A stretch of DNA of 64,000 nucleotides, from assembly GCA_041661305.1 (NCBI GenBank), contig JBAZUR010000002.1, positions 10,621-74,620 of the forward strand. The letters are read 5' to 3'. The notes below the pieces were generated by a model. The model did not search any database and was not told the origin of the DNA. It was given only the letters and a program-made list of their open reading frames with translations. Made by a program: the position numbers and the translations under genes. The DNA is from Minisyncoccota bacterium. Its GTDB lineage: Bacteria > Patescibacteriota > Minisyncoccia > Phycocordibacterales > VMEP01. The first letter of the stretch is position 1, and every line of letters starts with the position of its first letter. Positions 7,627 through 57,410 of this stretch are shown piece by piece.

Positions 7627-7718
7627 TATTTTTCTCTTTAAAAACACGTATAAAAATCTGCTGATTTTTTACTATACTCACGCCGTCGCGTTGCGTAATG
7701 TTTTTAAGGAGAAAAACT
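7627..7718 (-). promoter_or_regulatory. Copy A of a conserved ~90-nt element (IR-bracketed, promoter-like or structured 5' leader), upstream of the VirB3-like gene
   Basis: Shares CATTACG-17nt-GAGTATAGTAAA...TCAGCAGA...TTATACG with copies B and C. The flanking 18-20 bp inverted repeat and two internal hairpins co-vary between copies. Confidence 0.5.
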
Positions 7719-7791
7719 AGAGCTGAAGAAAAAGAAAGCAATACGAAGCCAAACTTCATAACAACGATTATCAGAATCATTGTTTCTGGAA

Positions 7792-8526
7792 TTAGATTTG
7801 TTCTCGATATGGATCCAGTTGGTACTTTGTCTCTTTTTTAGGAAGAGCGAAAGAGTCTGTTAGTTTTTGTTCAACTATATCAATTGGCGTAGAAGCACTT
7901 TCCTTTGCAGTAGAATTTTTTTCCTCGAGAACAGGTAGAACTTTTTGTGAAGAAATTTGGGGAATAGTTTTACCTGAAGAAAGTTCTCTTTCCGGTGTGA
8001 TTAATGGATTTTCAACGTCATTTAGTACATTTTCTCTTATAAGACTTTCGTTTTCTTCGGTTTCCATGTGCTTGTCTTCACTTACAATTTCAACACCACT
8101 TTCTTTAAATATGGTTTTATCAACAGGGTTTAGTGCGGTTTGCTCAAGTACATTATTTTGTGGAACATCTTCTCTGTATGCATCATGTTTTACTTCAACT
8201 AGCTCGGTTTCGCCATGTACCTTTTTTAACGATTCACGAATTGAACCAAAAATTTGCTCATTTATATCGTGGACAATTAAGCCGGCGATATCGTGAGTCA
8301 CACCAAGCTTTGACTCCACTACCCCCAAAAAATCTTTTGGGTTTGTTATGCCAAACATAACCAAGTTTGTTTCATCAACCAAGATTGTTAACTTATCAAT
8401 ATGGAGAGAGTATTTTGATCCAATTTCTCTAATTTTTTTACCAGTATCAAAACCAAAAAGAACATCTTTCACATCGTCTGGGAGATGCTCGAGCATTTGT
8501 TCAAGTTGTTGGTTTGTGTAGTTCAT
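7792..8526 (-). CDS. Acidic soluble hypothetical protein of the T4SS-like cluster
   Basis: 244 aa ORF with no TM segment and no recognisable motif. Confidence 0.3.
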   Translation of the reverse strand: MNYTNQQLEQMLEHLPDDVKDVLFGFDTGKKIREIGSKYSLHIDKLTILVDETNLVMFGITNPKDFLGVVESKLGVTHDIAGLIVHDINEQIFGSIRESLKKVHGETELVEVKHDAYREDVPQNNVLEQTALNPVDKTIFKESGVEIVSEDKHMETEENESLIRENVLNDVENPLITPERELSSGKTIPQISSQKVLPVLEEKNSTAKESASTPIDIVEQKLTDSFALPKKETKYQLDPYREQI

Positions 8527-8541
8527 CTTAAAAGTAATTTT

Positions 8542-10962
8542 TTACTTACCCTCTGTTTTTTTATTATCTTCTCTTGCTTTCATCCTTTCAAGACTTTCTA
8601 CAAATCTTTGGAGATTTCTTGCGTTATTTTTTGCTGTTTCTCTTTCAAATAGTAGTTTTGCGCGATCATTCTTATCTCCACGGTCGCCGAGTTCGTCGAG
8701 TTTCATTTGTATATTTATTGACTCTTTTGTAAATGAATCAATGGCTTCTTTCACAGATTGGTTGCTCCCCATCAAACTTTTTATCGTTCCTTCAAGTTTA
8801 GATATTTCTTGGTCAGATTTATATTTTGAGCCGATTTCTTTCTCTGCTTTTTTGGTTGCCCCGGCATTACCAAATTTTATTGCCTGTGGAATAATCTCCC
8901 CACCTTCAATATAGTTTTTATTTTTTAGTTGTTCAAAATATGATTTTTGGCGTTCTTGTGTTACCACCCTATTCTTTGCCTCTTCCGACGATTTAATTTC
9001 ACCCTCAATAATTGAAGACTTGTCGGTTTGCTTAAATTTCTCCAGCCTTAGAGCAAGTTGCTCCTTATCGTTTTTGCCGGCTTTTTCTGCGTCAGTTAAT
9101 TTAACATTATCGAGAATCTTTTTATCTGCAGCTTTTTTAGCCACCGCCTTTTCTTCCTCAGTTAACTTAACTGTTTTGGCTTCTAGTAGCTTTGCGATAT
9201 CAGCACGTTCTTTACCGCGTTCTTTTTCGGCACGGTCAAGGTCTCCGCGGAAACCATCCGTAAGATCTTTTGGTTTTTGTCCTAGGTCAACCTTGGCGCC
9301 AGTTGCCCCAGCAAGTTTAGAACCCAATCCTCCAATAAGTGGTGTTTCACCGGCGGCGCGAACATCAAAACTAGACTTAGCTACTCCTACGGTACTTTGT
9401 AGAGCTAGGCGAGCAAATCTATTATTTGAAGCCGCAGACTTAGCCCATTCTTGGTTGGCGACCCAAGAGGCCCCTGCTCCAACTGTTCGCCTAGCTATCA
9501 AACCGCCAGCTCCGCCAGCAAGTGCTCCTGCCCCGACAGACAGCATCCCAGAAATTTTTGATCCCGCTGATCCGCTTAGCTCTCGTGTGGTTTTAACTGC
9601 TGCGAGCAAAAGTCCTATCGCAATCAAAAAACTAAAGATTACACCAACGGTATTTACGTCTGGGGAAGTAAGCGCACTCGCCATGTTTGAACCAGATACA
9701 TTTTCTGTATATGTCGTAACAGTAGAACTTACACCTCCGCTTGCGGTTAACGCAGCGGCTAGATTTGTATTTTCTGTGTAGGTTGCAACGGTAGATTTCA
9801 TGCTTCCCGTGGTAGCTACAGAGGAAGCGCTATTTAATCCGTTATTTCCACCACCAAGAATTATTAGAATCATCCACATAAACATAAGGAAAACTGGAGC
9901 CACAAGAACTTGCTCCCAGAGTTGATCCCACCACATCTTGGAGTACTTGGCTGTTTTTGGGATAAGACCAGCTACGTAGGCAAATGGTGAAAGAGGAAGA
10001 AGAAGGATGAGGATTATTGCGCGCGACAAAAAGATAAACGCAACTGAAAGAAAAGAAAAAGCAGTAATAAGAATAAAAATCACACCCATTAACGAGATAG
10101 TTAATATTTGGAAAAAATCAACAGAGTTGGAGGCAAAAACCGATTGTATTTTTGTTAGTTGGAAAAACTTATCAGATATTCCCCCAGCGGAAAAGTTTCC
10201 AGTTTGAGAGGGGTCTATAATTCCTGAATAAAATTGAAAAGCTACAATGTTTGAGGTATCAATAATGACTTTAGTAAAAAAGAGGCTGAAGTTTATTAAA
10301 AGAGCGGCGATTATAATGCTTGGAATTAATTTTTTACCATCACCTATTTGAAGAATGTTTTGTATTGAAATCCAAAGGAGAGCAAAAATAAAAATAATAT
10401 TCGACATATCGCGAATAGTTCCCCAAGCAAGATTAATCCCAGGAGTTTTCTGTATAAATTCAGCCATGTTTAGGTTGAATTTAATTGATTGATTAAGTAA
10501 TACGCTGGCAAGGTCAAGAAACCAACTACTGAGCCATAGGGCGCTGTTTCCAAACCATACAGTTGTACATCTCATAGCGTTCCCTGTAGCTAAAGCGCTC
10601 CAAGTACCACAATCAAGTTTTACGTTTTCATTAGCAGTTCCGTCAAAAGCCGAGGCGGGTAAAGCTTTTGAAGTTTCTACTTGAATACAATTTAAGTATG
10701 CACCTGAATTCCCGTCTTTAAGATAAGCACAAGCTTGTTCTGGGTTTGCCGAAGAGCTTAGTGCGTCTGTTTGATTATCTCTGTTTTGAATATCTTCCTG
10801 GAGAATACAAGGTCCCCCATTTGGGTCTTCTACATAAGGAGCTTCACAGCTTTGCGCTTCCGCAACATTATTTCCAAGCAATGGTGGTAAAACAAAAAAC
10901 AAAAAAGCAAAAAATAATATTGCTGAGGAGTAGAATATTTTTTTTGAAAAAAAAGATTTCAT
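8542..10962 (-). CDS. VirB6/TrbL-like polytopic membrane protein with a long charged C-terminal tail (TcpH-like architecture)
   Basis: Signal peptide and a Cys-containing exo-domain, then at least 6 TM helices and a Gly-rich region. The C-terminal tail of ~300 aa is Lys/Glu-rich and coiled-coil. At 806 aa it matches the size of Gram-positive VirB6 analogues. Confidence 0.45.
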   Translation of the reverse strand: MKSFFSKKIFYSSAILFFAFLFFVLPPLLGNNVAEAQSCEAPYVEDPNGGPCILQEDIQNRDNQTDALSSSANPEQACAYLKDGNSGAYLNCIQVETSKALPASAFDGTANENVKLDCGTWSALATGNAMRCTTVWFGNSALWLSSWFLDLASVLLNQSIKFNLNMAEFIQKTPGINLAWGTIRDMSNIIFIFALLWISIQNILQIGDGKKLIPSIIIAALLINFSLFFTKVIIDTSNIVAFQFYSGIIDPSQTGNFSAGGISDKFFQLTKIQSVFASNSVDFFQILTISLMGVIFILITAFSFLSVAFIFLSRAIILILLLPLSPFAYVAGLIPKTAKYSKMWWDQLWEQVLVAPVFLMFMWMILIILGGGNNGLNSASSVATTGSMKSTVATYTENTNLAAALTASGGVSSTVTTYTENVSGSNMASALTSPDVNTVGVIFSFLIAIGLLLAAVKTTRELSGSAGSKISGMLSVGAGALAGGAGGLIARRTVGAGASWVANQEWAKSAASNNRFARLALQSTVGVAKSSFDVRAAGETPLIGGLGSKLAGATGAKVDLGQKPKDLTDGFRGDLDRAEKERGKERADIAKLLEAKTVKLTEEEKAVAKKAADKKILDNVKLTDAEKAGKNDKEQLALRLEKFKQTDKSSIIEGEIKSSEEAKNRVVTQERQKSYFEQLKNKNYIEGGEIIPQAIKFGNAGATKKAEKEIGSKYKSDQEISKLEGTIKSLMGSNQSVKEAIDSFTKESINIQMKLDELGDRGDKNDRAKLLFERETAKNNARNLQRFVESLERMKAREDNKKTEGK

Positions 10963-10965
10963 TTT

Positions 10966-13206
10966 TTAATAGTATGTGTTTTGGTTTCTTCCTTCTCTCT
11001 CTAATCTTTCTTTTTCTAAAATTGCCTGGTGCTCTGTCTGACAATTACTAAAAGCACTCGAGGCGGTATCTCTAATTGCTCTTATTTCAGAAAACTGCGA
11101 TGCCGCGGTTTCGGCCATATCAGGAGTTGGAACTCCATCTGAGCCGGAAATTGCCACGAGTGAATATGAAGCTGTCTGGAAATCAGTTCTTCCAGAAGTG
11201 ATAGCTTCCTTTAGTGCTGCGAAAGGAATTATTTTTAAAGAGATGGCACCAATCTCTCTTTCTAGTTTGCTTATTAAATCATTGTAGTATGTTTGTTGAG
11301 CAAAAAGTGAAGGTGAACTCAATTGACTATCCAAAGTGCTTGGGCAATAAGTTGCTGGGCTAAAGGATATTAAGGCGCTAGTAGTTGAAGCAGCTTCATG
11401 CACAACATTTAGTGTTTCATTACGTATACCAAGGTATCCCGCAAAAGCATTAGTTGTGTTATCTATACTAGCGACAATGTCGTTGATTGAATTAATTTCT
11501 TGGGTTCGACTCGCTTGGTTATTGGCAAGATTATCGTCAGTGTAGGAAAAGAAAGAACTTTCGGCTAAAGACTGTGCTAACGCGCGGTCTTGTGGAGAAA
11601 CATCTTCGTTTGAGTTTGCGTCTATGTTTGAAACGTTTCTCGATGGAGCGGTTGCTGCGGCGCGAAGCCTCTCCTCTATTGTTGAGGCTGGTGTTGTTAT
11701 TTTGGTCTTACGACAAGCACCAGGGACGACATCAGCACCTGTATCCAAACACTCCTTTATTGGGGGGACTCCGTCTTTTGCCTCTATCTTTGCGGCTTCC
11801 TCGGCTTCTGAGAGAGAAGAACCCAAATCTTCGCTTACTCGTAGGTAGTTTGCTGCAACGTTATTTTGAGAAGCCAAAACAAAACATTTAATAGAAGAAC
11901 AAACCGAGGTGTCACCATTTCGGTATCTTGTGGCATTTGTTGCGCCAATAGCTTTTGCCAGCGGATCTTCGTATTTCGCTATTCTGCCTGCAGCTGTTTC
12001 TGATTGTTGTGAAGCGATAACTGCTTTTATGTTTTCTTCTCTATAAGGAGAATTAGTTTTAGATAAATCAGAGACAAAAATCCTTGTTTGGTTTTGTGCT
12101 TGTTTTGCAAGGTAGTCATTAAAGTTTGTTAGATACAAAGGGTTGCCATTATTCCCAGTGTTTAACCACTTCATTTCATTTTCTTGCATTTTGGCGATCG
12201 TAATACGTGAGCTTGTGTAAGCTATTCTGTCTAAACAAGTCTGTTTTGTTTTAAGAGTAGATGTATCTTGTTGCAAAGTGTTTATTTGTTTAACGATTGT
12301 TTGTGGGTCTGTTGGCACTGTTCCACCCCCGCCGAGCAAAGAAAGAACACTCCCTACTCCAGGAAGAGCAGACCCAGCTCCACCGAACACGCTCCCCAGC
12401 TCTCCCGCAGTGTATCCTGCAGACATTCCACCCAAAGTATTTCCAAGGCTAACAAGAGAGCCAGAGCCAATTTCTGCTCCAAGATTAACAAGCATGCTTC
12501 CAGTATTATTTACTACCCCAGATAGTAGGTCGCTAGATAAAACACTAGTTACTATTTTGTCAGCACCACCGACAACATTTTGAATTGCTCCGTTAATACC
12601 ACTATTAACACCTCCAATTTGACCGTTTATATTATTCAGTGCTTCGTTAATAACACCGTTTGCTTTATTTTCTAGTGCGGTACCAACTTGGCCAGCTATT
12701 TTTCCTGCCGTGTTTCCAATGACACCACCGCCCAAAGCTTCATTAACAGACCCAGAAGCTTTTGCTCCAAGGCCGTTTATCCCTGCACTACTTAAAAGTT
12801 GCTGTCCAAGAGAGGAAAGAGTACTACTTACAGCTCCTCCGACAGCGCTACACCCTGAATCGGCAAGGTTTTTGGCAAGAGCTTCATTTGCTGTGTTTAA
12901 GGAAGCCGTTTTTATTCCCGTGGATAGCGTAACGCAACTGTTTGATTCATCGTAAATACCAGATGGACACGATTGAGCCGAAGAGGCCTCTGTTGAAGGG
13001 ACATAAGCTCCGGTTGCAGGGTTGTAGTATGAATCTGTGTAATCCGAAGTTCGAACATTTTCGCCTGTTGCTGGATTATAATATTCGTTTGTTTGCGCTC
13101 TAGTTATGTTTGTAGTTGAAAAGAAAGAAGAAACAACAAACAAATAAATAAGAAATATTGAAATTGTTTTTTTAACCATATTCCTTTTAGCAGAAAATAG
13201 AACCAT
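10966..13206 (-). CDS. Large secreted/surface protein with YYNPATG repeats and a long Gly/Ser/Ala/Asn-rich low-complexity region
   Basis: N-terminal TM/signal segment. The motif Y(Y)NPATG(E/A)(N/Y)V occurs three times. About 250 aa are of GxxG/SxxG type. The C-terminal domain is globular. Confidence 0.35.
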   Translation of the reverse strand: MVLFSAKRNMVKKTISIFLIYLFVVSSFFSTTNITRAQTNEYYNPATGENVRTSDYTDSYYNPATGAYVPSTEASSAQSCPSGIYDESNSCVTLSTGIKTASLNTANEALAKNLADSGCSAVGGAVSSTLSSLGQQLLSSAGINGLGAKASGSVNEALGGGVIGNTAGKIAGQVGTALENKANGVINEALNNINGQIGGVNSGINGAIQNVVGGADKIVTSVLSSDLLSGVVNNTGSMLVNLGAEIGSGSLVSLGNTLGGMSAGYTAGELGSVFGGAGSALPGVGSVLSLLGGGGTVPTDPQTIVKQINTLQQDTSTLKTKQTCLDRIAYTSSRITIAKMQENEMKWLNTGNNGNPLYLTNFNDYLAKQAQNQTRIFVSDLSKTNSPYREENIKAVIASQQSETAAGRIAKYEDPLAKAIGATNATRYRNGDTSVCSSIKCFVLASQNNVAANYLRVSEDLGSSLSEAEEAAKIEAKDGVPPIKECLDTGADVVPGACRKTKITTPASTIEERLRAAATAPSRNVSNIDANSNEDVSPQDRALAQSLAESSFFSYTDDNLANNQASRTQEINSINDIVASIDNTTNAFAGYLGIRNETLNVVHEAASTTSALISFSPATYCPSTLDSQLSSPSLFAQQTYYNDLISKLEREIGAISLKIIPFAALKEAITSGRTDFQTASYSLVAISGSDGVPTPDMAETAASQFSEIRAIRDTASSAFSNCQTEHQAILEKERLEREGRNQNTYY

Positions 13207-13211: not shown

Positions 13212-14156
13212 TTACGGCTGTGTATTATTAAGTATAACACCACTTTTAAAATATATCTCTAGTGTTTTAGCGGTTTCTACCAATTTATTGCTATAGGAAA
13301 GATATTGATTAAGACCGTTCATCGAAAGAAGAGGGTCGGAAAAAATTTGCCCGACAATTTTCAGAGAATCAGCCGTTCCTCGGTAGTTATTTATCAGATC
13401 AAGGTGAAGCTCTGCTATTTTTTCTGGAACCGCGATTTCCACGGTGTCCTTGGCTATGTTTGTGTAGGCGTTTATGTAAGGAACTAGTTTTGTTTGCAAT
13501 GTTTGGTCGCTAGTTTCAAGAGAGGTAGAGATTACTGTGATTTCTTGTCCTAGGTTATATTTCGAATATTTTTGGATTACCGTTCCAAGATTTTTGCTGT
13601 AAGCTAAAATTTCTGCATCACTGGCGTTTTTTATAACAGTGAGGTCGTTTATTGTGTATAGGGGGCGTATCTCCTCTTGTTTTATGTTGGAATATATAAT
13701 TTTTGCGGTTTCTCGTACTGTTTCTGGGTCAAATTTTCCAGCGTTTTTAAGAGCTGAAGCTGCCACAAAAAACTGCTGACCGAACTGATCTGTCGCAGAG
13801 GTTGTAATCTCTCCACTCGTGGTATTTTTAGCCACATTTTGTTTATGAACTTCAGTTCCGTCTAATATTCCGTTGTTATTTGAGTCTTTATTGTTCGGAT
13901 CTGTACCATAAAGTGCTTCCTCCCAGTCTTTTAGTCCATCCTTATCACTGTCTTTGTTTATTAAATCTGCGACGGAGTCGTTTACCCCACCATTAATAAC
14001 CAAAACACCTTGTTCTTCTTGTTTTGTTTCTGTAATTAGTGGATTAGAAACTCCTTTGTTGGAAAAAACAGATAAACTTATAATTGTTAACCCTAAAATA
14101 GATGCGGCAACTAATTTTTTGTTCTTAAGAAAGTTTCGCACGGATTGAGAATTCAT
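13212..14156 (-). CDS. Secreted protein with thrombospondin type-3-like Ca-binding repeats; first gene of the minus-strand cluster
   Basis: Signal/TM segment. DSDKDGLKDWEEALYGTDPNNKDSNNNGILDGTE fits the D-x-D-x-D-G-x-x-D pattern. Confidence 0.4.
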   Translation of the reverse strand: MNSQSVRNFLKNKKLVAASILGLTIISLSVFSNKGVSNPLITETKQEEQGVLVINGGVNDSVADLINKDSDKDGLKDWEEALYGTDPNNKDSNNNGILDGTEVHKQNVAKNTTSGEITTSATDQFGQQFFVAASALKNAGKFDPETVRETAKIIYSNIKQEEIRPLYTINDLTVIKNASDAEILAYSKNLGTVIQKYSKYNLGQEITVISTSLETSDQTLQTKLVPYINAYTNIAKDTVEIAVPEKIAELHLDLINNYRGTADSLKIVGQIFSDPLLSMNGLNQYLSYSNKLVETAKTLEIYFKSGVILNNTQP

Positions 14157-14230
14157 AGATTGTTTAAGTATAGCAAGGAAATCGTTGTTTTTCTGTGGAT
14201 TCTTTGGTTTGTGTGGATATTCTTTTTTAA

Positions 14231-14316
14231 AATACTTTTGAAAAACACGTATAATTTTTTGCTAAAAATTTACTATGCTCGGCTCGTCAGCCTGCGCAAT
14301 GTTTTTCGAAAGTATT
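14231..14316 (-). promoter_or_regulatory. Copy B of the conserved ~90-nt IR-bracketed element, upstream of the gene at 13212-14156
   Basis: Core is CATTGCG-17nt-GAGCATAGTAAATTTTTAGCAAAAAATTATACGTG. It is flanked by AATACTTTTGAAAAACAC and GTTTTTCGAAAGTATT, a 16/17 inverted repeat. Confidence 0.5.
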
Positions 14317-14344
14317 TTGTTTTACTTTGTTATATAATAGTTGT

Positions 14345-24297: not shown

Positions 24298-24840
24298 TTA
24301 ATTATTTGTAGCCTCCCCTTTTTTACTTCGCCTTGGCATTATTAAAAATTTCTTAGGGTCATCAGAAAGGTCAATGAAGTCGTCAGCAACAGCACGGAGG
24401 TTGCTTGAAGCTGATTTACCAAAAGCGATAACTTCAACCTGTACCCCAACGTTTAGCTTTAAATATTCAACTAGTGGGCAAAAATCCCCATCTCCCGAAA
24501 CAATAACAACAGCATCAAGCTTTGGTGCTAAGCGCATTGCATCGACAGCAAGCCCAACATCCCAATCTGCTTTTTTGGCTCCACCCCAGAAAATCTGAAG
24601 ATCCTTAACTTTTGTTTCTATTCCAACCTTCCCCAAAGCTTCAAAAAAGCTTTTTTCATCCTCACCTTCTGTTTTGATGACATAAGCAATAGCGCGAACA
24701 AGTTGGCGTACACCAACAGCTTCTTTCATTATGGCTCCAAAATTTACTTTTGCGTGATAAAGGTTGCGGGCACTGTGATAAAGATTTTGTGTATCTATAA
24801 AAACACCAACTCTTTGGTCTTTGTGTTTAATAACTGACAT
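24298..24840 (-). CDS. NYN/LabA-like (PIN-like) domain protein
   Basis: RVGVFIDTQNLYHSARN at the N-terminus and ...VIVSGDGDF later, which are typical NYN-domain acidic motifs. It sits between rpsO and pnp. Confidence 0.65.
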   Translation of the reverse strand: MSVIKHKDQRVGVFIDTQNLYHSARNLYHAKVNFGAIMKEAVGVRQLVRAIAYVIKTEGEDEKSFFEALGKVGIETKVKDLQIFWGGAKKADWDVGLAVDAMRLAPKLDAVVIVSGDGDFCPLVEYLKLNVGVQVEVIAFGKSASSNLRAVADDFIDLSDDPKKFLIMPRRSKKGEATNN

Positions 24841-24946
24841 ATATAAAAATTATTTACTTAAACGAACTATATTATTAAAAATTTAATTCTTCTATCGGTA
24901 ATGATAGAAGCTTGCAGACGGCCTGTCGGTAAAGACGGGCTATTTC

Positions 24947-25210
24947 TTACTTCAAGGCTAGCTTCTTAACGATAGAATCGTATCGTTTCTTGCTTTTCTT
25001 CTCCAAATACTTCAAATGTGTTCTGCGGTCAGCAACAATTTGAATAAGCCCACGACGAGAATGGTTGTCCTTTTGGTTTTTCTTTAAATGGGTAGCTAAA
25101 TCGGTGATTCTCTTGGTCAAAATGGCGATTTGGACCTCGGCAGAGCCTGTATCCTTGTCGTGAATCTGCGTTTTTGACATGATTTCAGCCTTTTTCTTCT
25201 TCGTTATCAT
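24947..25210 (-). CDS. rpsO: 30S ribosomal protein S15
   Basis: 87 aa; DTGSAEVQIAILTKRITDLATHLKKNQKDNHSRRGL is S15-like. It occupies the classic position upstream of pnp. Confidence 0.9.
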   Translation of the reverse strand: MITKKKKAEIMSKTQIHDKDTGSAEVQIAILTKRITDLATHLKKNQKDNHSRRGLIQIVADRRTHLKYLEKKSKKRYDSIVKKLALK

Positions 25211-25586
25211 GGGCCAAACTATAGCAAAAAAGCCTTATTTTTGCAAGGGCTCTCGGTAAAAACCTACTTCTTCAAGGGTTTTTAGTGGAGTTGGTTGAAC
25301 TTCGGGTCGTTTCGCAGATTTTTTAGCGCCTCACTGAGTTCTGCCTCTTGTTTGGCTGTTAATTCCTGTGTTTCAGGGTATTGTTCCTCCTTTTTTTCAA
25401 AAAGATCTTCGCGGCCTAAAAGAGAAGCATCTCCATGTGCCTCATTGTCGTCTGTCGGTAGTGATTCTAGTCTCATATTTATGTAATTTATATAACTATA
25501 TCATAAAAAAATAAAGGTATCAGATTTTTTCAAATTTATAGATACCATGCTTACCTTATTGTCGTGGTAAAATATTTTACGACATT

Positions 25587-26513
25587 ATGACTCAAGATTT
25601 AAAGAGCTTAAAACAACAATTTCTCGAATATATAGAAATAGAACGCGGGAGAAGCTTGAAAACAGTACGTAATTACGATGCATATTTAGAGCGTTTTCTT
25701 GTTCAAACAAACGCAAAACACCCCAAAGATATAACCGACGACTCTGTTCGTGAATTTCGTCTATGGCTTAATAGACAAGAAGGTCGGCGCGAGCGCGGAA
25801 TGAGTGCTGGAACTTTAAAAAAGAAGACACAGAACTATTATTTGATTGCGTTACGAATTTTTCTTAAGTATTTAATGAAAAGAGGAATCGAGGCGATGCC
25901 ACCAGACCGTATTGAATTGGCAAAGGTATCAGAACGCTCGCTTGACCTTATTTCTCTTGATGAATTAGAGAGATTACTTAAAGCCCCTAATGGCGATGAT
26001 TTAAAAAGTTTGCGTGATAAAGCAATTTTAGAACTACTTTTTTCTACAGGACTTCGTGTTTCTGAGCTTTGCTCTCTTCCCCGTGATATTGATTTACGTA
26101 AAGATGAATTTTCTGTTAGGGGGAAAGGTGAAAAAGTCCGCGTTGTTTTTCTTTCGGATTCGGCAAAGGAGGCGATTAAAAAATACTTAGCTAAGCGTCC
26201 GGATATGGAAGACGTCCTTTTTGTTGGCACTGGAAGTATTGGCAAGAAAAAAGGAGAAATAACACATCTCACAACTCGTTCCGTGGAAAGAATTGTCGCG
26301 CAATATGCAATTAAGGCGGGTATCTCAAAAAAAGTAACCCCTCACGTTATTCGCCACTCATTCGCTACAGATTTACTGGGTAACGGGGCAGATATTCGCT
26401 CTGTTCAAATGATGCTCGGCCATGCGAGTATTTCCACTACTCAAATCTATACCCACGTGACAGATAAAGCTCTTAGGGAGATACATAAAAAATTCCACAG
26501 CGGTGGAAAGTAA
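25587..26513 (+). CDS. xerC: Tyrosine recombinase of the XerC/XerD family
   Basis: 308 aa with a core-binding domain and a C-terminal catalytic region (RHSFATDLLGNGADIRSVQMMLGHASISTTQIYTHV) that carries the R..H..Y residues. Confidence 0.85.
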   Translation: MTQDLKSLKQQFLEYIEIERGRSLKTVRNYDAYLERFLVQTNAKHPKDITDDSVREFRLWLNRQEGRRERGMSAGTLKKKTQNYYLIALRIFLKYLMKRGIEAMPPDRIELAKVSERSLDLISLDELERLLKAPNGDDLKSLRDKAILELLFSTGLRVSELCSLPRDIDLRKDEFSVRGKGEKVRVVFLSDSAKEAIKKYLAKRPDMEDVLFVGTGSIGKKKGEITHLTTRSVERIVAQYAIKAGISKKVTPHVIRHSFATDLLGNGADIRSVQMMLGHASISTTQIYTHVTDKALREIHKKFHSGGK

Positions 26514-26540
26514 AAAGACGCCATACAATTTGGACGTCTT

Positions 26541-26828
26541 TTAGTTCGCGGAGGTGGAAGTGCTTACGTGCCACTCGACTAAACCAGGATCTCTCAGTCT
26601 GATGGTTACGAACATTTCTTCCGTTCCGTATTCTGGAAAGTTTTTTACGGCATGGTCGACGATGTCGAGAAGAGGGACACATAGAAATATCTTCTTGCAA
26701 GATCTTCCAAGATAAAGCCCTTCCCCGTTTGTACAAATTCCCCAGTTTCCATAATCGGAGACCTCCCCACTTTCCATCATTTGCCTAATCAAATATCTGA
26801 CACTACAAACACTATTTTTGGGTGCCAT
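26541..26828 (-). CDS. Small hypothetical protein
   Basis: 95 aa. A good Shine-Dalgarno sequence (AAGGAG) lies 8 nt upstream of the ATG. No recognisable motif. Confidence 0.35.
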   Translation of the reverse strand: MAPKNSVCSVRYLIRQMMESGEVSDYGNWGICTNGEGLYLGRSCKKIFLCVPLLDIVDHAVKNFPEYGTEEMFVTIRLRDPGLVEWHVSTSTSAN

Positions 26829-26885
26829 AGAACTTGCTCCTTTTTATGTAATTTCTAATACATATCATATGCTAAAATAATAAAA

Positions 26886-27659
26886 ATGAAAATCATCTCC
26901 TGGAATGTAAATGGGCTCCGTGCGGTACACAGAAAAGGGCTGTTTCTTTCGTTTATTAAAAAAGAGAAACCGGATATCCTGTGCTTACAGGAAACTAAAG
27001 CTGAAGAAGTTCAGTTACCAGAAGAAATCAGAAATATTCCTGGATATTTTTGTTACTTCTCACATTCAAAAGGACGTAAGGGATATAGTGGTGTTGGTAT
27101 TTATACAAAAATTGCGCCAGAAAAAATTGAAGAAGGAATGGGAATTAAAAAATTTGATGACGAGGGGCGATTGTTAGTTTTACATTTTAAAAAATTTATT
27201 CTTCTTAATGTCTATTTTCCAAATGGAGGTGGAGCCCCAGAGAGACTTAAATACAAGTTAGATTTTTACGAAGAATTTTTAAAACACATTGAAAAATTAA
27301 AAAAGGGAGACAAAGAAATTATTTTTTGCGGAGATGTTAACGTGGCTCATGAGCCAATAGACATTGCTAGGCCTAAAGAAAACGAGGGACAAATTGGTTT
27401 TTTACCAGAAGAACGAGCTTGGATTGATGAATATATCGCACATGGTTATCTAGATGTTTTTCGACACTTCAATCCTGAGAAACAAAATGCTTATACTTGG
27501 TGGGATATGAAAACCCGCGCACGAGATAGAAATGTTGGATGGAGAATAGATTATTTTTTTGCATCACGCGGTTTGATAAAAAAAATAACAGCAATTAAAA
27601 TACTCTCAAACGTTTTCGGCTCGGACCATTGTCCGATAGCACTAGAATTAAAAGATTAG
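26886..27659 (+). CDS. xth: Exodeoxyribonuclease III
   Basis: MKIISWNVNGLRA at the N-terminus and a C-terminal SDHCP motif identify the ExoIII/APE1 EEP fold. Confidence 0.9.
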   Translation: MKIISWNVNGLRAVHRKGLFLSFIKKEKPDILCLQETKAEEVQLPEEIRNIPGYFCYFSHSKGRKGYSGVGIYTKIAPEKIEEGMGIKKFDDEGRLLVLHFKKFILLNVYFPNGGGAPERLKYKLDFYEEFLKHIEKLKKGDKEIIFCGDVNVAHEPIDIARPKENEGQIGFLPEERAWIDEYIAHGYLDVFRHFNPEKQNAYTWWDMKTRARDRNVGWRIDYFFASRGLIKKITAIKILSNVFGSDHCPIALELKD

Positions 27660-27680
27660 AAACTCCTAAAGGACATTTCA

Positions 27681-29150
27681 CTATTTTACCCAGTGTTTTT
27701 TTCTTATCTCAGATACTTCTTTTGATTCCTCCTCCTCTTTTTTAGCCTTCCCCTCCTCGCCAAGTTTTTTTAGCTCGTCGATAGATAGTTTTATTAATAC
27801 AAGTGAACGTTTTTCTAGATACTCAGTGGTATTTCTGTCTGGCTCATCAAGTACTTCCTCAAGAAGTGCGTGTAAAACATAGCCAATCTTTGGTCCAGGA
27901 GTTTCATGTGTAACTTCCATAATACGTTTTCCGTCAATCTTTAGCATCGCTACCGATATCGGTGCACGCATCGCTTCTTCAATCATAGACTCATATTTTC
28001 TAAGCCGATACGGGGTCTCTTTTGGTCTGCCCATGCCGATACGGTCGCATGCTCTAACTTTCATTAAATCCCAAACATTTTCTGGTCCAACATTTTTTAC
28101 AATCCTTCTTACAGCGGAAAGGGTTATTTTTTCTACATCTGAGAAAAATAAATGATATCTCACTAGTTTAGAAACAACCTCTACTATATCTTTTGGAAAA
28201 CGCATCCTCTCCAGTATTTTTTTTGTTACACGTGAACCAACAACATCGTGCCCATAGAATGTATAATCTTTCTTTTCATCTGACCAACGCCTAGTTTCGG
28301 GCTTAGAAACATCATGAAATAAGGCTGCAAGTCTCACGTGTAACGGCCAATCTCTATCTGCCGAGTGCTGTAAAGCTCTTAGGTTGTGCTCCCAAACATC
28401 GTAAATATGGTCGCCATTCTGTTTAACCTTAATGCCAGCTTCTGTTTCAGGTGAAACATATTTGAGCACGCCAAGACGATTTGCTAAGACGATTCCTATC
28501 ATTGGGTTCGGTGACATTACTAGTTTTATAAATTCATCACGAATCCTTTCCAGCGCTATGTTTTTTAGGTTATTCACATTGTTTTCCAACGCTTTTTCTG
28601 TCTCGCTGTTAATCATGAAACCTAATTCTGCGGCCAAACGAACTGCTCTCATTACACGAAGTGCATCTTCGGCAAATCTTTCTTCTGGATTGCCAACTGC
28701 TCGGATAATCTTGTCCTTTATATCCTTTTGTCCGTTATACGGATCAACAATTTGTCCTTTAGTAATATCATACGCAATCGCGTTGATTGTGAAGTCACGC
28801 CTCCTTAGGTCGTCTTCTAGATTTTTACTAAAAACAACAGAGTCTGGTCTGCGGTAATCACTATACTTCCCCTCTATTCTGTAGGGAGTTATTTCTACAA
28901 TTTTTAACGTCTCGTCTGTTTCACTTTCATCTACAACACCAACTGTTCCGTACTCATTTTCGTAAAATGTTTTTGGAAAAATTTTTATAATATCCTCCGG
29001 TCTTGCATTTGTCGTGAAGTCCCAATCTTTTGGTTTTTTACCCGCTAAAACATCTCGAACACACCCCCCAACTAAATATGCTTCAAAACCGGCTTTTTCT
29101 AGAGATTCGCTTATGGCGCTTATGTTTTTGGGGATATTTTCAGGCTTCAT
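27681..29150 (-). CDS. cca: CCA-adding tRNA nucleotidyltransferase with HD domain
   Basis: GGCVRDVLAG and DWDFTT identify the polymerase-beta head. An HD domain follows. Total length 489 aa. Confidence 0.9.
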   Translation of the reverse strand: MKPENIPKNISAISESLEKAGFEAYLVGGCVRDVLAGKKPKDWDFTTNARPEDIIKIFPKTFYENEYGTVGVVDESETDETLKIVEITPYRIEGKYSDYRRPDSVVFSKNLEDDLRRRDFTINAIAYDITKGQIVDPYNGQKDIKDKIIRAVGNPEERFAEDALRVMRAVRLAAELGFMINSETEKALENNVNNLKNIALERIRDEFIKLVMSPNPMIGIVLANRLGVLKYVSPETEAGIKVKQNGDHIYDVWEHNLRALQHSADRDWPLHVRLAALFHDVSKPETRRWSDEKKDYTFYGHDVVGSRVTKKILERMRFPKDIVEVVSKLVRYHLFFSDVEKITLSAVRRIVKNVGPENVWDLMKVRACDRIGMGRPKETPYRLRKYESMIEEAMRAPISVAMLKIDGKRIMEVTHETPGPKIGYVLHALLEEVLDEPDRNTTEYLEKRSLVLIKLSIDELKKLGEEGKAKKEEEESKEVSEIRKKHWVK

Positions 29151-29223
29151 TATCTAAAAATATTACTCCAGGTTTTGATATTTTCCTAATTTTCCTTATG
29201 ATGTAAGGGTTCTCACAGTTTTA

Positions 29224-29295
29224 GCCCCCGTAGTGAAATGGATATCACGACAGTCTTCGAAACTGTTATTCCAGGTTCGAATCCTGGCGAGGGCA
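29224..29295 (+). tRNA. tRNA-Arg (anticodon TCG)
   Basis: Cloverleaf: acceptor GCCCCCG/CGAGGGC with one C-A mismatch at 5-68, D arm GTGA..TCAC, anticodon arm ACAGT-CTTCGAA-ACTGT, T arm CCAGG-TTCGAAT-CCTGG. No CCA is encoded. A promoter-like TTGATA-16-TATGAT lies at 29174-29201. Confidence 0.6.
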
Positions 29296-29482
29296 CACGA
29301 AGTGTGCCTGAAGCAGTGAGACGCCTGCGCGTCTCACGTCAGGATTCGAAAGCCGGAATATGTTTTTGTAATCAAAAACATTGAGGCGGGGTTGCAGGTT
29401 CTTAGTACGTGAAGAATGTACACATTTGAACGTGCTTAGAAACCTGTGACCGAATCCCAGTAGAAAAATATCCGTGACCTAA
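29296..29482 (+). repeat. tRNA-trailer module, copy 1 (after tRNA-Arg)
   Basis: Two hairpins, then CAGGATTCGAA (antisense of the tRNA-Arg T-loop/stem), then AAGCCGGA...GAGGCGGGGT, a variable hairpin, ...TGTGACCGAATCC and ATATCCGTGACC. It shares its core with copies 2 and 3. Confidence 0.45.
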
Positions 29483-29551
29483 TCTTTTATTGACGTAACC
29501 TCTATATTATTTGAACTTATTTAAAACTCTGTTAAAATACACCGATAAATT

Positions 29552-29622
29552 GCGGGTATGGTTTAGTGGTAGAACACGTCCTTGCCAAGGATGAGACGGG
29601 GTTTCGATTACCCCTACCCGCA
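29552..29622 (+). tRNA. tRNA-Gly (anticodon GCC)
   Basis: Acceptor GCGGGTA/TACCCGC, anticodon loop TTGCCAA, T arm GGGGT-TTCGATT-ACCCC. No CCA is encoded. A promoter-like TTGAAC-16-TAAAAT lies at 29508-29535. Confidence 0.85.
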
Positions 29623-29672
29623 CAAAGCGTTAAGAAAACATGCTAGGAATAGCATGTTTTCTTAACGCTTTG
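29623..29672. repeat. Perfect 23-bp inverted repeat (hairpin) immediately 3' of tRNA-Gly(GCC)
   Basis: CAAAGCGTTAAGAAAACATGCTA-GGAA-TAGCATGTTTTCTTAACGCTTTG. No T-run follows. Confidence 0.7.
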
Positions 29673-29989
29673 TGGGTCGGAGTATTATTGTTTACCAATA
29701 CAATAACTGTAATAATTTTTCTGTATTAACGGCTTACGGACAGTTTTTTGCAAGAAAGATAGAGACTTGTAAACAGTGCTACTTTAAAAAATAAGGCTAA
29801 AATAGGTCAAATCTGGGGATAAGTCAGTGGACAATGTTAATAAGAGACATAAAAACTGTCCAAGAAAATGGCCTTTATTTGTCTAAAAATGGCTTTAAAT
29901 AAGGATAATTTGTCTTTATTGGGACTTTCCTTTCTAAAAGTTTCACGTGAAACAAACATATCCAAAGTTGTGGTGTATAATTATTTTTT

Positions 29990-30400
29990 ATGAGCTCAAG
30001 TGTTGAGAGAAATCAAGCGAAACAGATGGTTGGAAGGGTCGGTGAAGATTTGGCTTGTAGATTTCTGGAAAAGAAAGGTTTTAGTATTGTAGATAGAAAT
30101 TACCGAAAGTTTACTGGGGAAATAGATATAATTGCGAAAAAGGACAAAACTTTGTACTTTATTGAAGTTAAGACTGTTTCCCGTGAAAACTTTGGCTTGG
30201 AAGACGTGTGGATTGGGCACCGCGCGGAGGACAATCTCCACCCTCAAAAATTAAAACGTCTTAGTAGAGCCATTAACTCATATCTTCAAGAGAAGAGGGT
30301 AGACGTAGATTGTAATTGGCAGTGCGACGCCGTTATTGTCAATTTGTTTACAAAGGAGAAAAAAGCAAAAATTAAGTATTTAGAAAATATTTTTGCGTAA
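29990..30400 (+). CDS. yraN: YraN/UPF0102-family endonuclease
   Basis: 136 aa; GEDLACRFLEKKGFSIVDRNYR...GEIDIIAKKD...YFIEVKT matches the family. An extended -10 box (TGGTGTATAAT) ends ~8 nt before the ATG. Confidence 0.7.
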   Translation: MSSSVERNQAKQMVGRVGEDLACRFLEKKGFSIVDRNYRKFTGEIDIIAKKDKTLYFIEVKTVSRENFGLEDVWIGHRAEDNLHPQKLKRLSRAINSYLQEKRVDVDCNWQCDAVIVNLFTKEKKAKIKYLENIFA

Positions 30401-30504
30401 TTTTTTAATTTTTATGATAGGATTGGTGGGTTGTCGTGTTTTATAAGCGTTTGTTTTAATGGCAGGTGGAAGGGAATACGTCTGCGTGGGGTCAAAAAAT
30501 GTTT

Positions 30505-30541
30505 CGGGGTGTAGTATAGAGGTAGTACGTCTGCTTTGGGG
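30505..30541 (+). repeat. Orphan duplicate of the 5' half of tRNA-Pro
   Basis: A 37-nt copy of the first ~36 nt of tRNA-Pro (30579-30614), differing only at the last base. A more decayed copy lies at ~30462-30490, where ...GAATACGTCTGCGTGGGG is recognisable. Confidence 0.6.
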
Positions 30542-30578
30542 TTGTGAAGATTTTCCGTTTGGTTTTTGGTTATATCGC

Positions 30579-30649
30579 CGGGGTGTAGTATAGAGGTAGT
30601 ACGTCTGCTTTGGGAGCAGATAGCCCGAGTTCGATTCTCGGCACCCCGA
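30579..30649 (+). tRNA. tRNA-Pro (anticodon TGG)
   Basis: Acceptor CGGGGTG/CACCCCG, anticodon arm TCTGC-TTTGGGA-GCAGA, T arm CCGAG-TTCGATT-CTCGG, discriminator A. It is flanked by a 16/17 inverted repeat (GGTTGTGAAGATTTTCC at 30537-30553 and TTGAAAAATCTTCACAACC at 30673-30691). Confidence 0.85.
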
Positions 30650-30930
30650 CGATGTAACTAAACGGTTTGTGTTGAAAAATCTTCACAACCAGAAGTCTGG
30701 GAGACTTCTGTGGAAATTTCCATAAGAAATTTAGATAGCCCGAGTTCGATTCTCCCATCCCGCACAGATTTTAGCGAAGCGAAAAGCTGGGCGGGATGAG
30801 CAAGCAAACTGCTTTGCTTGCGTGGAGAATCGAAAGCCGGAGCATGTCGCCCTGCGACGGCGAGGCGGGGTCGAGAGTACTTATGAGCGAAGCGAATTAG
30901 TAACTCGTGACCGATTCTCGGCACCCCGAC
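30650..30930 (+). repeat. tRNA-trailer module, copy 2 (after tRNA-Pro), including a chimeric tRNA 3' fragment
   Basis: At 30734-30766 the T arm is Pro-like (GATAGCCCGAGTTCGATT) and the acceptor 3' strand is Gly(TCC)-like (CTCCCATCCCGCA). Then GCGGGATG (antisense), a hairpin, GGAGAATCGAAAGCCGGAGC...GAGGCGGGGT, a hairpin, CGTGACCGATTCTCGGCACCCCGAC. The last 19 nt repeat the tRNA-Pro 3' end. Confidence 0.45.
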
Positions 30931-30949
30931 AATGTAGCTAAGTGGGTTT

Positions 30950-32101: not shown

Positions 32102-32169
32102 GAGGACTATTATATCTGGAAAGTTTACTTCACAGTACTTTATCTGATAATATGGCGAATACAGTATTT

Positions 32170-32240
32170 GCGGGATTAGTTAAATGGTATAACTCCAGTT
32201 TTCCAAACTGGTGTCGGGAGTTCGATTCTCCCATCCCGCA
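32170..32240 (+). tRNA. tRNA-Gly (anticodon TCC)
   Basis: Acceptor GCGGGAT/ATCCCGC, D arm GTTA..TAAC, anticodon arm CCAGT-TTTCCAA-ACTGG, T arm GGGAG-TTCGATT-CTCCC, discriminator A. Confidence 0.85.
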
Positions 32241-32385
32241 CTGAATTTTAACAAAACTAGCTAAGGCTAGTTTTGTTGCGGGATGGGAGAATCGAAAGCC
32301 GGAGCGCGACGGCGTGAGGCGGGGTAGCGGAATTTTCCAGCAGGAAAATATCCGTGACCGATTCCCATCCCGCACCAGATATACA
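32241..32385 (+). repeat. tRNA-trailer module, copy 3 (after tRNA-Gly(TCC))
   Basis: A 12-bp hairpin (AACAAAACTAGC-TAAG-GCTAGTTTTGTT), then GCGGGATGGGAGAATCGAA (exact antisense of the tRNA 3' end), AGCCGGAGC...GAGGCGGGGT, a hairpin, CCGTGACC and GATTCCCATCCCGCACCA (sense 3' end plus CCA). A terminator lies at 32390-32422. Confidence 0.5.
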
Positions 32386-32389
32386 AAAT

Positions 32390-32422: not shown

Positions 32423-32435
32423 AGAGAGTAGTGAA

Positions 32436-32708
32436 TTACTTCACTGCGTCTTTCAAACCCTTGCCTGCGCGAAACTTAGGAACGTTCATTGCTGGGACGT
32501 TAACTGGTTCGCCTGTGCGAGGATTGCGGGCGGTTCTTGCTGCGCGTTTCTTTACAACGAATGTTCCAAAACCTGCAACAGAGACCTCATCACCTTTCTT
32601 TAGTGATTTTACGATCGAGTCGAACACTGTTTCAACTGCTTGTTCTGCGGATACTTTTGTTCCGCCTAACACTGCATGTACTGAGTCGACAATTCCTGCT
32701 TTATTCAT
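32436..32708 (-). CDS. hup: DNA-binding protein HU
   Basis: 90 aa; MNKAGIVDSV...GFGTFVVKKRAARTARNPRTGEPVNVPA is the HU/IHF fold signature. Confidence 0.9.
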   Translation of the reverse strand: MNKAGIVDSVHAVLGGTKVSAEQAVETVFDSIVKSLKKGDEVSVAGFGTFVVKKRAARTARNPRTGEPVNVPAMNVPKFRAGKGLKDAVK

Positions 32709-32973
32709 TTTTTTAAGTAGCTACTTAAACGATTAATAATGCTCGACCGAGTTTTATTATGGTCATACACGCGTATGAACCGCCTTAAGACCACGCAAAC
32801 ATTATATATCAGGCCATTTTTTAGGCAATAAGGGGAAAATAAGACCAGTGAATATTCGGGTAGAAAGGTTTGTATTTATAGATAAAATTTATTTGTATAA
32901 AGAAAATCAAAACAACAAAAAATCAAGGGGTTTCCTTGATTTTTTGTTGAAAAATATGGCTTTTTTAGGTTTA

Positions 32974-55784: not shown

Positions 55785-55785
55785 A

Positions 55786-55995: not shown

Positions 55996-56018
55996 AGATT
56001 TAGTCGCCGTATGCTATC

Positions 56019-56654: not shown

Positions 56655-56738
56655 TTAGTTTTTACTAACACAAGTTTGTTTTCGTTTGATAACTATTATA
56701 TAAAGAATATAGTTTTGAACTTCAAATAAATAAAGGAG

Positions 56739-57218
56739 GTGCTTATGAACCCCGTTGAGATTCCTCAACCAAGAACCGTTTTGTCGGTTGAGGAATTTTT
56801 AGCCTCTCTCGACAAGACAAATCCTACGTTTCAAATGGTAGAAAGGGCGCTGACATTTCCCAATAACAAAACAAGGTGTATTTACAAAAAAGACTCGCAG
56901 TTATGCGAGATGGTTATGGGAAGAAAGAGTGTTTCTCGCTTACCAATTGTAGACAAGCCACTGCAGGTTGTAATTGAGGCCGGCGATTTCCACGAAGTAA
57001 TAACCGGAGCTCTGTATTCATATCACTTCGTCTTGAATGGTGGAGACCCGAACGAGCGCAATAGTTTGATTTGGGGAGAACTTTATTGTCGCGCGGGGTA
57101 CGGATACTACTTCACAGGAGCATATGGTAATGATCACTCAGTAATCATCTCTGAGCATCACTATAAGCCGGATAGCTTCGACAAAGACTTGCTGATAAGG
57201 CTTGGCTTTGATTTTTAA
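56739..57218 (+). CDS. Hypothetical protein
   Basis: Strong ribosome-binding site AAAGGAGGTG. A clean terminator follows at 57217-57250. GC content is above that of neighbouring DNA. No recognisable motif. Confidence 0.4.
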   Translation: MLMNPVEIPQPRTVLSVEEFLASLDKTNPTFQMVERALTFPNNKTRCIYKKDSQLCEMVMGRKSVSRLPIVDKPLQVVIEAGDFHEVITGALYSYHFVLNGGDPNERNSLIWGELYCRAGYGYYFTGAYGNDHSVIISEHHYKPDSFDKDLLIRLGFDF

Positions 57219-57250
57219 ACCCCACCGCCGCAAGGTTCGGTGGGGTTTTT
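57217..57250 (+). terminator. Rho-independent terminator
   Basis: AAACCCCACCGCCGCAAGGTTCGGTGGGGTTTTT. Confidence 0.75.
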
Positions 57251-57318
57251 AGCTTTTTCTTGTATAAATAAACGATTTTACCCTTAAAAACACTGGTTTT
57301 TCTTTCAAATAAACCCCA

Positions 57319-57410
57319 ATATTCCCCTTTGAAATGCATTACGGAGCGTGGCGACGCGAGTATAGTAAATTTTCAGCAGAAAATTATACGCGCATTTCAA
57401 AGGGGAATAT
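57319..57410 (+). promoter_or_regulatory. Copy C of the conserved ~90-nt IR-bracketed element, upstream of rpsL
   Basis: A perfect 19-bp inverted repeat (ATATTCCCCTTTGAAATGC ... GCATTTCAAAGGGGAATAT) brackets CATTACG-17nt-GAGTATAGTAAATTTTCAGCAGAAAATTATACGCG. A possible upstream promoter TGTATAAAT lies near 57268. Confidence 0.5.

Follow-up and report, generated by a model that had tools for sequence, protein, structure and literature searches.

A previously uncatalogued family of scattered repeats with a strand-specific three-way-junction fold in Parcubacteria genomes

Rickettsia palindromic elements (RPEs) are dispersed palindromic repeats of about 100 to 150 bp that reside in a reduced genome, where they occur in frame within conserved protein genes (PMC10969869). 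Correia elements (CREE) and ERIC sequences are intergenic inverted repeats of about 100 to 200 bp, present in many copies, which carry sigma70-like boxes and RNase III-sized stems, may lie just upstream of genes, and are substrates of recombination or inversion (PMC10969869). Here, we analyzed a 64,000-nucleotide stretch of a Minisyncoccota bacterium (assembly GCA_041661305.1, contig JBAZUR010000002.1, positions 10,621 to 74,620; hereafter the window), in which a first-pass annotation had described three elements of about 90 nt. These elements belong to a previously uncatalogued family of repeats scattered in Parcubacteria genomes. Its members share a covarying, strand-asymmetric fold, are present in high copy number, and occur in all gene contexts and orientations. 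With moderate confidence, we read them as a noncoding, dispersed, probably mobile palindromic repeat family of Parcubacteria/Paceibacteria that folds on one strand.

All three elements were found where they had been reported, and all were recovered with R1, a covariance model of the structural class to which they belong (class 1). Copy A (7623..7721, minus strand) scored 99.9 bits, copy B (14224..14322, minus strand) 105.5 bits, and copy C (57316..57414, plus strand) 109.8 bits. Their common core reads CATT[A/G]CG, 14 nt, GAG[T/C]ATAGTAAA, 14 nt, TTATACG[C/T]G; its spacing is the same in the three copies, and the alignment through it is gap free. The outer inverted repeat, the GC hairpin, and the A/T hairpin that had been proposed as paired regions were all correct. 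The outer stem, P1, is a perfect 19 bp in copy C (ATATTCCCCTTTGAAATGC/GCATTTCAAAGGGGAATAT) and has 17 to 20 bp with one C.A mismatch in copies A and B, the latter belonging to an 'AAAATAC...GTATTTT' P1 subfamily that is also found in relatives. The 4-bp GC hairpin, P2b, has a GRCG loop and reads ACGC/GCGT (copy A), GGCT/AGCC (copy B), or GCGT/ACGC (copy C), and the 7-bp A/T hairpin, P3, has an AGCA loop. Two features had been overlooked: P3 extends by three further pairs (GUA/UAC) beyond a bulged A, and a 3-bp helix, P2a, pairs UAC/UGC of the '-35-like' box with GUA/GCA of the '-10-like' box. Each copy folds as a three-way junction of P1, P2a, P2b, and P3. In copy A, the stems are P1 TTTTTCTCCTTAAAAACA/TGTTTTTAAAGAGAAAAA, P2a UAC/GUA, P2b ACGC-GACG-GCGU, and P3 GUAAAAAAUC-AGCA-GAUUUUU-A-UAC. 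Measured against dinucleotide shuffles, the fold z-scores were -5.8 for A, -5.2 for B, and -8.0 for C, and 0 of 200 shuffles were as good. Nowhere in the window does a P1 arm of A, B, or C recur a third time. A long outer stem bearing two small hairpins is also the shape of the T- or Y-shaped terminal hairpins of parvoviruses and adeno-associated virus, which are read by a site-specific protein. This is a structural analogy only, and nothing here points to a linear replicon or a Rep protein.

An exact-pattern scan covering one genome per species returned 72 loci, about 60 of which were true copies with the 14-nt gap. True copies came only from metagenome-assembled genomes of Patescibacteria (Parcubacteria, Paceibacterota, Zambryskii-, Kaiser-, and Nomurabacteria), and several of the host assemblies were mislabelled 'Saccharibacteria'. 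Matches in other phyla were rejected as chance, having different gap lengths and no fold. The loci fetched (about 1.6 Mb in all) are denoted below by L-numbers. Run over 427 kb of these loci, R1 gave 76 matches, with up to three copies per 8 kb, and VMEP01000001.1, a 680-kb contig of a relative with 89% identity to the window at one locus, contained at least 14 copies. In 27 class 1 copies, 98.0% of the cells were paired, versus 37 to 58% when the partners were slid. Furthermore, 26 of the 35 pairs varied on both sides, and 0 of 500 shuffles matched the observed values. A conserved core combined with compensatory stem changes indicates a single-strand structure rather than a plain promoter. 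The first-pass annotation had claimed such a structure, and the claim was borne out both by this covariation and by the search of related candidate phyla radiation (CPR) genomes with a covariance model, which yielded many further copies with covarying stems.

In a second class (28 copies), P1, P2a, P3, and the junction bases are as in class 1, and P2 is a rod of 45 nt or about 100 nt. RNAalifold analysis of 21 class 2 copies gave 61 pairs, 40 of them compensated, together with two invariant U.G pairs and conserved loops. Across the family, P2 ranges from the 4-bp hairpin with a GRCG loop up to the rod of about 100 nt, P3 is a hairpin in which an A is bulged and the loop is usually AGCA, and the conserved junction bases are G-N-A-G, (C)GAG, NAG, and (C)GUG. 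Every copy has a terminal inverted repeat of 17 to 25 bp, and in class 1 the length of P1 is confined to 17 to 21 bp. The sequence of P1 differs from copy to copy and is common only within subfamilies. A conserved Y-shaped center and a variable outer stem of about 19 bp are the distinctive anatomy of the family. Copies from two genomes (L011 7397-7489 and L028 7217-7365) carry, at the identical P2 position after CATTRC, an inserted GC-rich palindrome (CTGCCCGCGTGTAC...GCGCAGGCGGGC), which may represent another small palindromic element nested within the repeat.

The family did not correspond to a described one in any of the collections consulted. Rfam 15, applied to the window and 35 loci at gathering and permissive thresholds, returned no family for the element, only tRNAs, tmRNA, rRNA, and one SAM riboswitch; the best matches on the element itself were chance miRNA-like ones (E 0.5 to 5). 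The literature searched by taxon, keyword, and literal sequence held no description of the family, and phage and plasmid collections gave no BLAST match to the element. A viral origin was rejected: in viral contigs, the core pattern and one P1 arm gave chance matches only.

The fold belongs to one strand. A 50-copy model-based alignment of the sense strand contained 36 G.U pairs versus 10 A.C mismatches. For class 1, the sense strand was also the more stable one in 46 of 50 copies (mean, 4.4 kcal/mol); for class 2, this held for 20 of 21 copies (9.5 kcal/mol), and for class 3, the GC-rich, tRNA-linked class described below, for all 97 (9.9 kcal/mol). From the G.U excess and the stability of the sense strand, we conclude that the structure is important in single-stranded sense form, either RNA or single-stranded DNA. 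Cruciform DNA had been considered as an option by the first-pass annotation; the structure is not a symmetric cruciform, since the sense strand is favored in all three classes.

Promoter-like boxes had also been noted within the element, and its sense strand does carry TTRCGN-16-YATAGT. However, these boxes are parts of the fold. The A/G of CATT[A/G]CG and the T/C of GAG[T/C]ATAG covary as a pair (A-U in 8 copies, G-C in 19, with 0 exceptions), which links position 2 of the '-35' with position 1 of the '-10'. The distance from box to box is 16 nt in class 1 and is not kept in class 2, where it is 57 to 145 nt, and variant copies with CAGAGC, GGGAGC, or CACGAG in place of YATAGT have lost the '-10' and kept the fold. 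A strict sigma70 consensus scan gave no sense-strand site in copy A, B, or C. It is antisense of copy B that a promoter-like site lies (TTAAAA-17-TATAAT, 14226..14255, plus strand; consensus match only, 10/12), and its -10 is the complement of the conserved UUAUAC. Another consensus match, TTTAAA-16-TATACT (7585..7612, minus strand), is located between copy A and the downstream PrgI-like gene, outside the element. As is known of Correia elements (PMC10969869), individual copies may have incidental promoter activity. In a scan for intrinsic terminators (stem plus T-run), none coincided with copy A, B, or C; canonical terminators stand apart, upstream.

Two copies are read through by long open reading frames (ORFs) in the sense orientation, one in recG (L131 1838-1936) and one in rsmE (L026 625-723). 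When the L131 RecG was aligned with Thermotoga RecG (PDB 1GM5), 43 residues stood against 5; this 38-aa insert comes after helicase motif II (DEQH) and before motif III (MTATPIPR), and its position coincides exactly with that of the element. In rsmE, the frame is open across the element, and both element-bearing proteins keep their Pfam domains. In-frame palindromic repeats within housekeeping genes are the signature of RPEs (PMC10969869). The copies in recG and rsmE are hard to reconcile with a dedicated promoter, a leader, or a free-standing RNA gene.

At the rpsL site, we compared six contigs encoding an S12 protein identical to that of the window. Their DNA is essentially invariant from ACTTGCAT (-35) via TAGTAT (-10) and the leader hairpin to the ATG. 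The likely rpsL promoter, TTGCAT-17-TAGTAT (57419..57447, plus strand), lies outside the element, is invariant in all relatives including the element-free one, and scores below the strict consensus scan. A terminator-like hairpin of the upstream gene (57225..57243, plus strand) is located 5' of copy C, again outside the element, so that copy C sits between a terminator and a promoter. The element itself varies among the relatives. Copy C is present in L084 and L085, in the former with an uncompensated T-to-C change in P2a. L086 has a chimera, the 5' arm and P2 of which come from another copy (279 kb in VMEP) and the arms of which no longer match; L087 has the 3' half alone, with the break in the P3 loop; and L089 has no element. 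This variability beside an unchanged promoter and leader shows that the element is dispensable for both, and at this site it behaves as a recombination substrate. In further strain comparisons, copies A and B were represented by the same allele or by a contig ending at the element. The leader hairpin of rpsL, GCCTCATTGAGGC followed by a T-rich run (57458-57480), is invariant in all six relatives and may be an S12 or str-operon leader or attenuator.

The position of the window copies relative to genes was as the first-pass annotation had given it (40 to 75 nt upstream of a start codon, in the same orientation), and so were the neighbors. Copy A lies 48 nt upstream of a PrgI/VirB3-like gene (PrgI family; 7156-7578, minus strand), copy B 74 nt upstream of a gene with a weak TSP3 repeat match (13212-14156, minus strand), and copy C 74 nt upstream of rpsL. 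In L090 1299-1496, which corresponds to the window region 7583-7780, the public annotation calls a 65-aa 'ORF' over copy A; here, the repeat has almost certainly given rise to a spurious gene call.

For class 1, gene contexts rest on simple ORF calls, which are reliable at 35 to 40% G+C. Class 1 copies were found in 9 tandem-sense, 6 tandem-antisense, 10 divergent, and 4 convergent contexts, next to genes unrelated to one another. The constant orientation and position and the related genes that characterize cis-regulatory leaders and riboswitches were not found in the family. Identical P1 stems occur at several loci of one genome, and the copies include tandem triplets, nested GC-rich palindromes in P2, and one solo 3' arm. 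Contigs in assemblies end at the element. We rejected an orientation set by replication, since the strands alternate along the 680-kb VMEP contig with no replichore pattern; the GC skew of the window gave no guidance on this point. P1 arms as guides or target copies were also rejected: across loci, they matched only orthologous or same-subfamily elements.

Class 3 copies are GC rich and follow tRNA genes. In the window, the diverged copy D3 (32271..32381, plus strand; R1 38 bits, E 1.6e-7) begins 30 nt past tRNA-Gly(TCC). Its 5' arm, TGCGGGATGGGAGAATCG, is the exact complement of the last 18 nt of this tRNA, and its 3' arm is a copy of the tRNA end plus CCA, a triplet missing from the gene itself; next comes a canonical terminator. 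Copy D2 (30824..30930, plus strand; recovered also as L145) has the core GAAAGCCGGAG..GAGGCGGGGTCG..GTGAC, and its 3' arm is the 3' end of tRNA-Pro (CGATTCTCGGCACCCCGAC). Copy D1 (29340..29460, plus strand), past tRNA-Arg, has a P1 derived from the tRNA-Arg T-arm (CAGGATTCG/CGAATCC(CAG)) and enlarged P2 and P3. D1 and D2, past tRNA-Arg and tRNA-Pro, share the GC-rich core GAAAGCCGGAG..GAGGCGGGGTNG..GTGAC. On short-armed class 3 copies, R1 scores were 28 to 48 bits, and intermediate forms exist; both observations relate class 3 to the other classes.

A metagenome scan for the class 3 core gave at least 120 matches, and all class 3 counts are among the matches listed. In 87 of 120, a tRNA gene is located 27 to 90 nt upstream on the same strand. 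The tRNA hosts represent at least 15 amino-acid types, and one match lies past tmRNA. At least 41 exact repeats of the tRNA end, each of at least 14 nt, directly follow GTGAC. They all begin at C56 of the T-loop and reach the tRNA end, 22 of them being 19 nt long and 10 being 21 nt long. One copy of this 19- to 22-nt repeat forms part of P1, and it is the repeat that the 5' arm complements, as opposed to the genuine 5' strand of the tRNA; in L101, the arm carries A at the position of the G in the G3.U70 pair of tRNA-Ala. Many repeats also share 2 to 4 nt of the gene's own 3' flank, which indicates that the tRNA-end copy was made at the DNA level. For this reason, and because just 7 of 39 repeats whose tRNA gene has no CCA carry one, a retro-copy origin was rejected. 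Class 3 units stand in tandem in L098, and in L101, as in D3, a canonical terminator comes next.

The tRNA cluster of the window (29224-32425) comprises tRNA-Arg(TCG), tRNA-Gly(GCC), tRNA-Pro(TGG), and tRNA-Gly(TCC), three of the four being followed by a GC-rich Y-shaped element. Around tRNA-Pro, there are a duplicate of its 5' half as far as the anticodon loop (30505-30541), a 16-bp inverted repeat bracketing the intact gene (30540-30555/30674-30690), and a chimeric T-arm with an attL-like look, composed of the tRNA-Pro 5' side and the tRNA-Gly 3' end (30733-30764). Taken together, these three features resemble traces left by successive recombination events at tRNA genes. In L042, a relative, 5 nt separate tRNA-Pro from tRNA-Gly, which implies that about 1.5 kb accreted in the window. 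A 20-bp perfect hairpin with a 13-nt loop (29617-29677) begins inside the tRNA-Gly(GCC) 3' end. R1 aligns it, at 25 bits, as a P1 that has no core, and it may be either an 'empty' stem or an element that has lost its core. The genes around the cluster (24298-34503) include those for an NYN nuclease, a XerC/D-like recombinase, exonuclease III, the CCA-adding enzyme, YraN/UPF0102, a trypsin-like protease, and RNase Y. No integrase is located beside the window cluster, the sole recombinase being the XerC/D-like gene 3 kb away, and the ORF 30950-32101, considered as an integrase, proved to encode the trypsin-like protease.

Genomic islands at tRNA and tmRNA genes are flanked by att repeats made of the tRNA 3' end. 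Class 3 resembles them in lying past tRNA or tmRNA and in ending, at its far boundary, in a direct repeat that runs from the T-loop to the terminus. In contrast to islands, the units are only 150 to 250 bp long and have no integrase, the repeat starts from C56 and so leaves out part of the T-loop, the tRNA types used number at least 15, and an inverted copy of the tRNA end serves as the other P1 arm. The RtT repeats of the E. coli tyrT operon (Rfam RF00391) are units past a tRNA gene, each with the last ~19 nt of the tRNA. Class 3 units likewise carry the end of the tRNA that they follow and can be in tandem (L098), but they have no Rfam match, another fold, a wide phylogenetic range, and many tRNA types.

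Among the systems outlined at the beginning, RPEs are alike in size, dispersal, reduced-genome host, and in-frame residence (here in recG and rsmE), a likeness drawn from their description. They differ in that the present family has another host lineage, mostly intergenic copies, a conserved three-way junction with a variable outer stem, and a tRNA-linked sister class. Like Correia and ERIC sequences, the family recombines (chimera L086), adjoins genes, and has box-like motifs. Correia and ERIC sequences have conserved terminal inverted repeats and target-site duplications, whereas here the terminal stem is variable, the center is conserved, the fold is strand asymmetric, and no duplication was found. 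REP, BIME, and REPIN sequences are abundant, RAYT-mobilized extragenic palindromes that are thought to move as folded single strands and are long inherited; in REPINs, conservation lies in the arms and variation in the loop. The present family also occurs in either orientation and in clusters, but its arms vary and its center is conserved. No RAYT-like gene was seen in the fetched sequence, which was not an exhaustive test. Two other candidates were discarded. TIGR-Tas stem-loop arrays require box C/D motifs, dual spacers that are single stranded, and a tandem arrangement beside a Tas gene. Integron attC sites have R''/R' boxes (RYYYAAC...GTTRRRY), extrahelical bases, and intI arrays; here, some copies have AAC/GTT, but nowhere other than at the P1 top, most stems are perfect, and the copies are scattered, not arrayed.

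These comparisons bear on our preferred reading, that of a probably mobile palindromic repeat family. As in MITEs (miniature transposable elements with inverted repeats), to which the bacterial Correia and ERIC sequences belong, the copies are numerous, dispersed, variable at the rpsL site, and resident inside genes. The family would multiply as selfish DNA via a folded single-strand intermediate or a transcript, and a trans-acting enzyme would read the conserved junction and loops. P1 would be kept paired because the fold is needed for propagation, and its arms may also be repaired by template switching at quasi-palindromes. An inserted copy would be mostly a bystander, although its RNase III-sized stem or -10-like box may incidentally serve the neighboring genes, as is the case for Correia and ERIC sequences.

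Several points weigh against this reading. No consistent direct repeat that would represent a target-site duplication was found around class 1 and class 2 copies, and neither a conserved terminal repeat nor a partner transposase was found in the loci examined. No clean pair of filled and empty sites was obtained, the region upstream of rpsL in L089 being rearranged rather than exactly empty. Lineages separated at order level (Zambryskii-, Kaiser-, and Nomurabacteria) share the conserved core. The invariant U.G pairs, the conserved loops, and the expandable P2 look more like functional RNA than like decaying selfish DNA, and the tight P1 length of 17 to 21 bp suggests a measuring partner. Finally, the location of class 3 on the same strand past tRNA genes, in some cases with a terminator (D3, L101), suits expressed RNA genes. 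Clustering of 793 flanking ORFs from the fetched loci revealed no recurrent partner gene, only pilins and syntenic housekeeping genes.

Tentatively, we also consider that the family is a new kind of element or RNA class in CPR bacteria that is tied to tRNA 3' ends. Behind this proposal is the outer stem of class 3, which consists of the copied last 19 to 22 nt of the tRNA and their perfect complement. One option would be an integrase-less mini-element that enters T-loops via a folded single strand; others would be a stable Y-shaped RNA matured by the tRNA-processing machinery, serving as a tRNA-end mimic or antisense, or a small ribozyme. The AT-rich copies of the A, B, and C type would then be 'free' derivatives of class 3.

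It is possible, if rather doubtful, that the copies are stable structured small RNAs encoded in multiple copies, which would be cut from longer transcripts at P1 and whose action in trans would be that of a ribonucleoprotein, a ribozyme, or a tRNA-end mimic. P1 would be cut as RNase III does for rRNA, and maturation of the tRNA-linked class would fall to tRNA-processing enzymes. The conserved junction, kept while P2 grows from 4 bp to about 100 nt, and the tRNA-linked class keep this explanation alive as the main rival. It is in line with the strand-specific fold, the invariant U.G pairs and conserved loops of class 2, the uniform length of P1, the same-strand position of class 3 27 to 90 nt past tRNA or tmRNA (87 of the 120 matches listed), and the terminator after D3. 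The inverted repeat that likewise brackets the intact tRNA-Pro, and the genes for RNase Y, the CCA-adding enzyme, and the NYN nuclease beside the tRNA cluster, also speak for it. However, RNA genes are hardly expected in frame within recG and rsmE; half and chimeric copies are tolerated, and a close relative does without the element at the rpsL site. Moreover, there are copies antisense to both flanking genes with no recognizable promoter of their own, many copies have canonical terminators directly upstream, and the tens of paralogues differ in their stems only.

It is unlikely that the element is a domesticated module acting in cis at the boundaries of transcripts, between transcription units, as an insulator, an RNase III processing site, an mRNA 3'-end stabilizer, or an unconventional bidirectional terminator. 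Almost all copies are intergenic, an opposite-strand stop codon abuts the P1 3' end in 12 of 23 class 2 and about 10 of 30 class 1 copies, and many copies lie between a terminator and a promoter, with canonical terminators being frequent 15 to 40 nt upstream on the sense side in class 2. RNase III cleavage at Correia inverted repeats is documented (PMC10969869). Nevertheless, the scan found no terminator-like stem plus T-run at A, B, or C, and in many copies T-runs are located 5' and A-runs 3' of P1, the reverse of a terminator. Ten class 1 copies are in divergent regions with no gene end nearby, and a simple stem function needs no conserved junction or loops.

There is no evidence for a shared regulator of the type IV secretion system (T4SS)-like genes and the str operon, and the promoter-operator or structured leader with which the first-pass annotation had explained the window copies is very improbable: although all three face the next gene at 48 to 74 nt, 20 of 30 class 1 copies have a co-oriented gene downstream, all five adjacent opposite-orientation pairs are head-to-head, promoter-like boxes are present on the sense strand and antisense in copy B, and promoters borne by MITEs are known, the family has many copies in all contexts, in mixed orientation to unrelated genes, convergent contexts and the interior of recG and rsmE included, its boxes pair, covary, move apart in class 2, and are lost in variants, and it is missing or broken before an otherwise identical rpsL promoter and leader.

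Whether as a probably mobile repeat, as we prefer, or otherwise, the family constitutes a sizeable and so far unannotated part of the intergenic DNA of CPR/Patescibacteria, the genomes of which measure about 0.7 Mb and yet tolerate tens of copies. The element also makes assemblies break and gives rise to rearrangements. With a covariance model of the family, annotation would become better, false genes such as the 65-aa 'ORF' of L090 would be avoided, and recombination hotspots would be flagged. The conserved junction implies a partner protein or activity, in organisms in which little RNA biology is known, and the tRNA-linked class could reveal an integrase-free targeting of tRNA genes or a new tRNA-related RNA.

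In the window, the T4SS-like cluster was confirmed at 4569-7578, with genes for a VirB4/TraG-like ATPase (4569-6389) and the PrgI family protein (7156-7578) among its members; the large ORFs beside it (8542-13206) are without a Pfam match. Family members also neighbor tmRNA. Class 2 copies adjoin its 5' end in two genomes, in opposite orientations, and a class 3 copy is located 67 nt past its 3' end (tmRNA neighbor loci: L007 3680-4248, L064 ~100-514, and L115 3400-3886).

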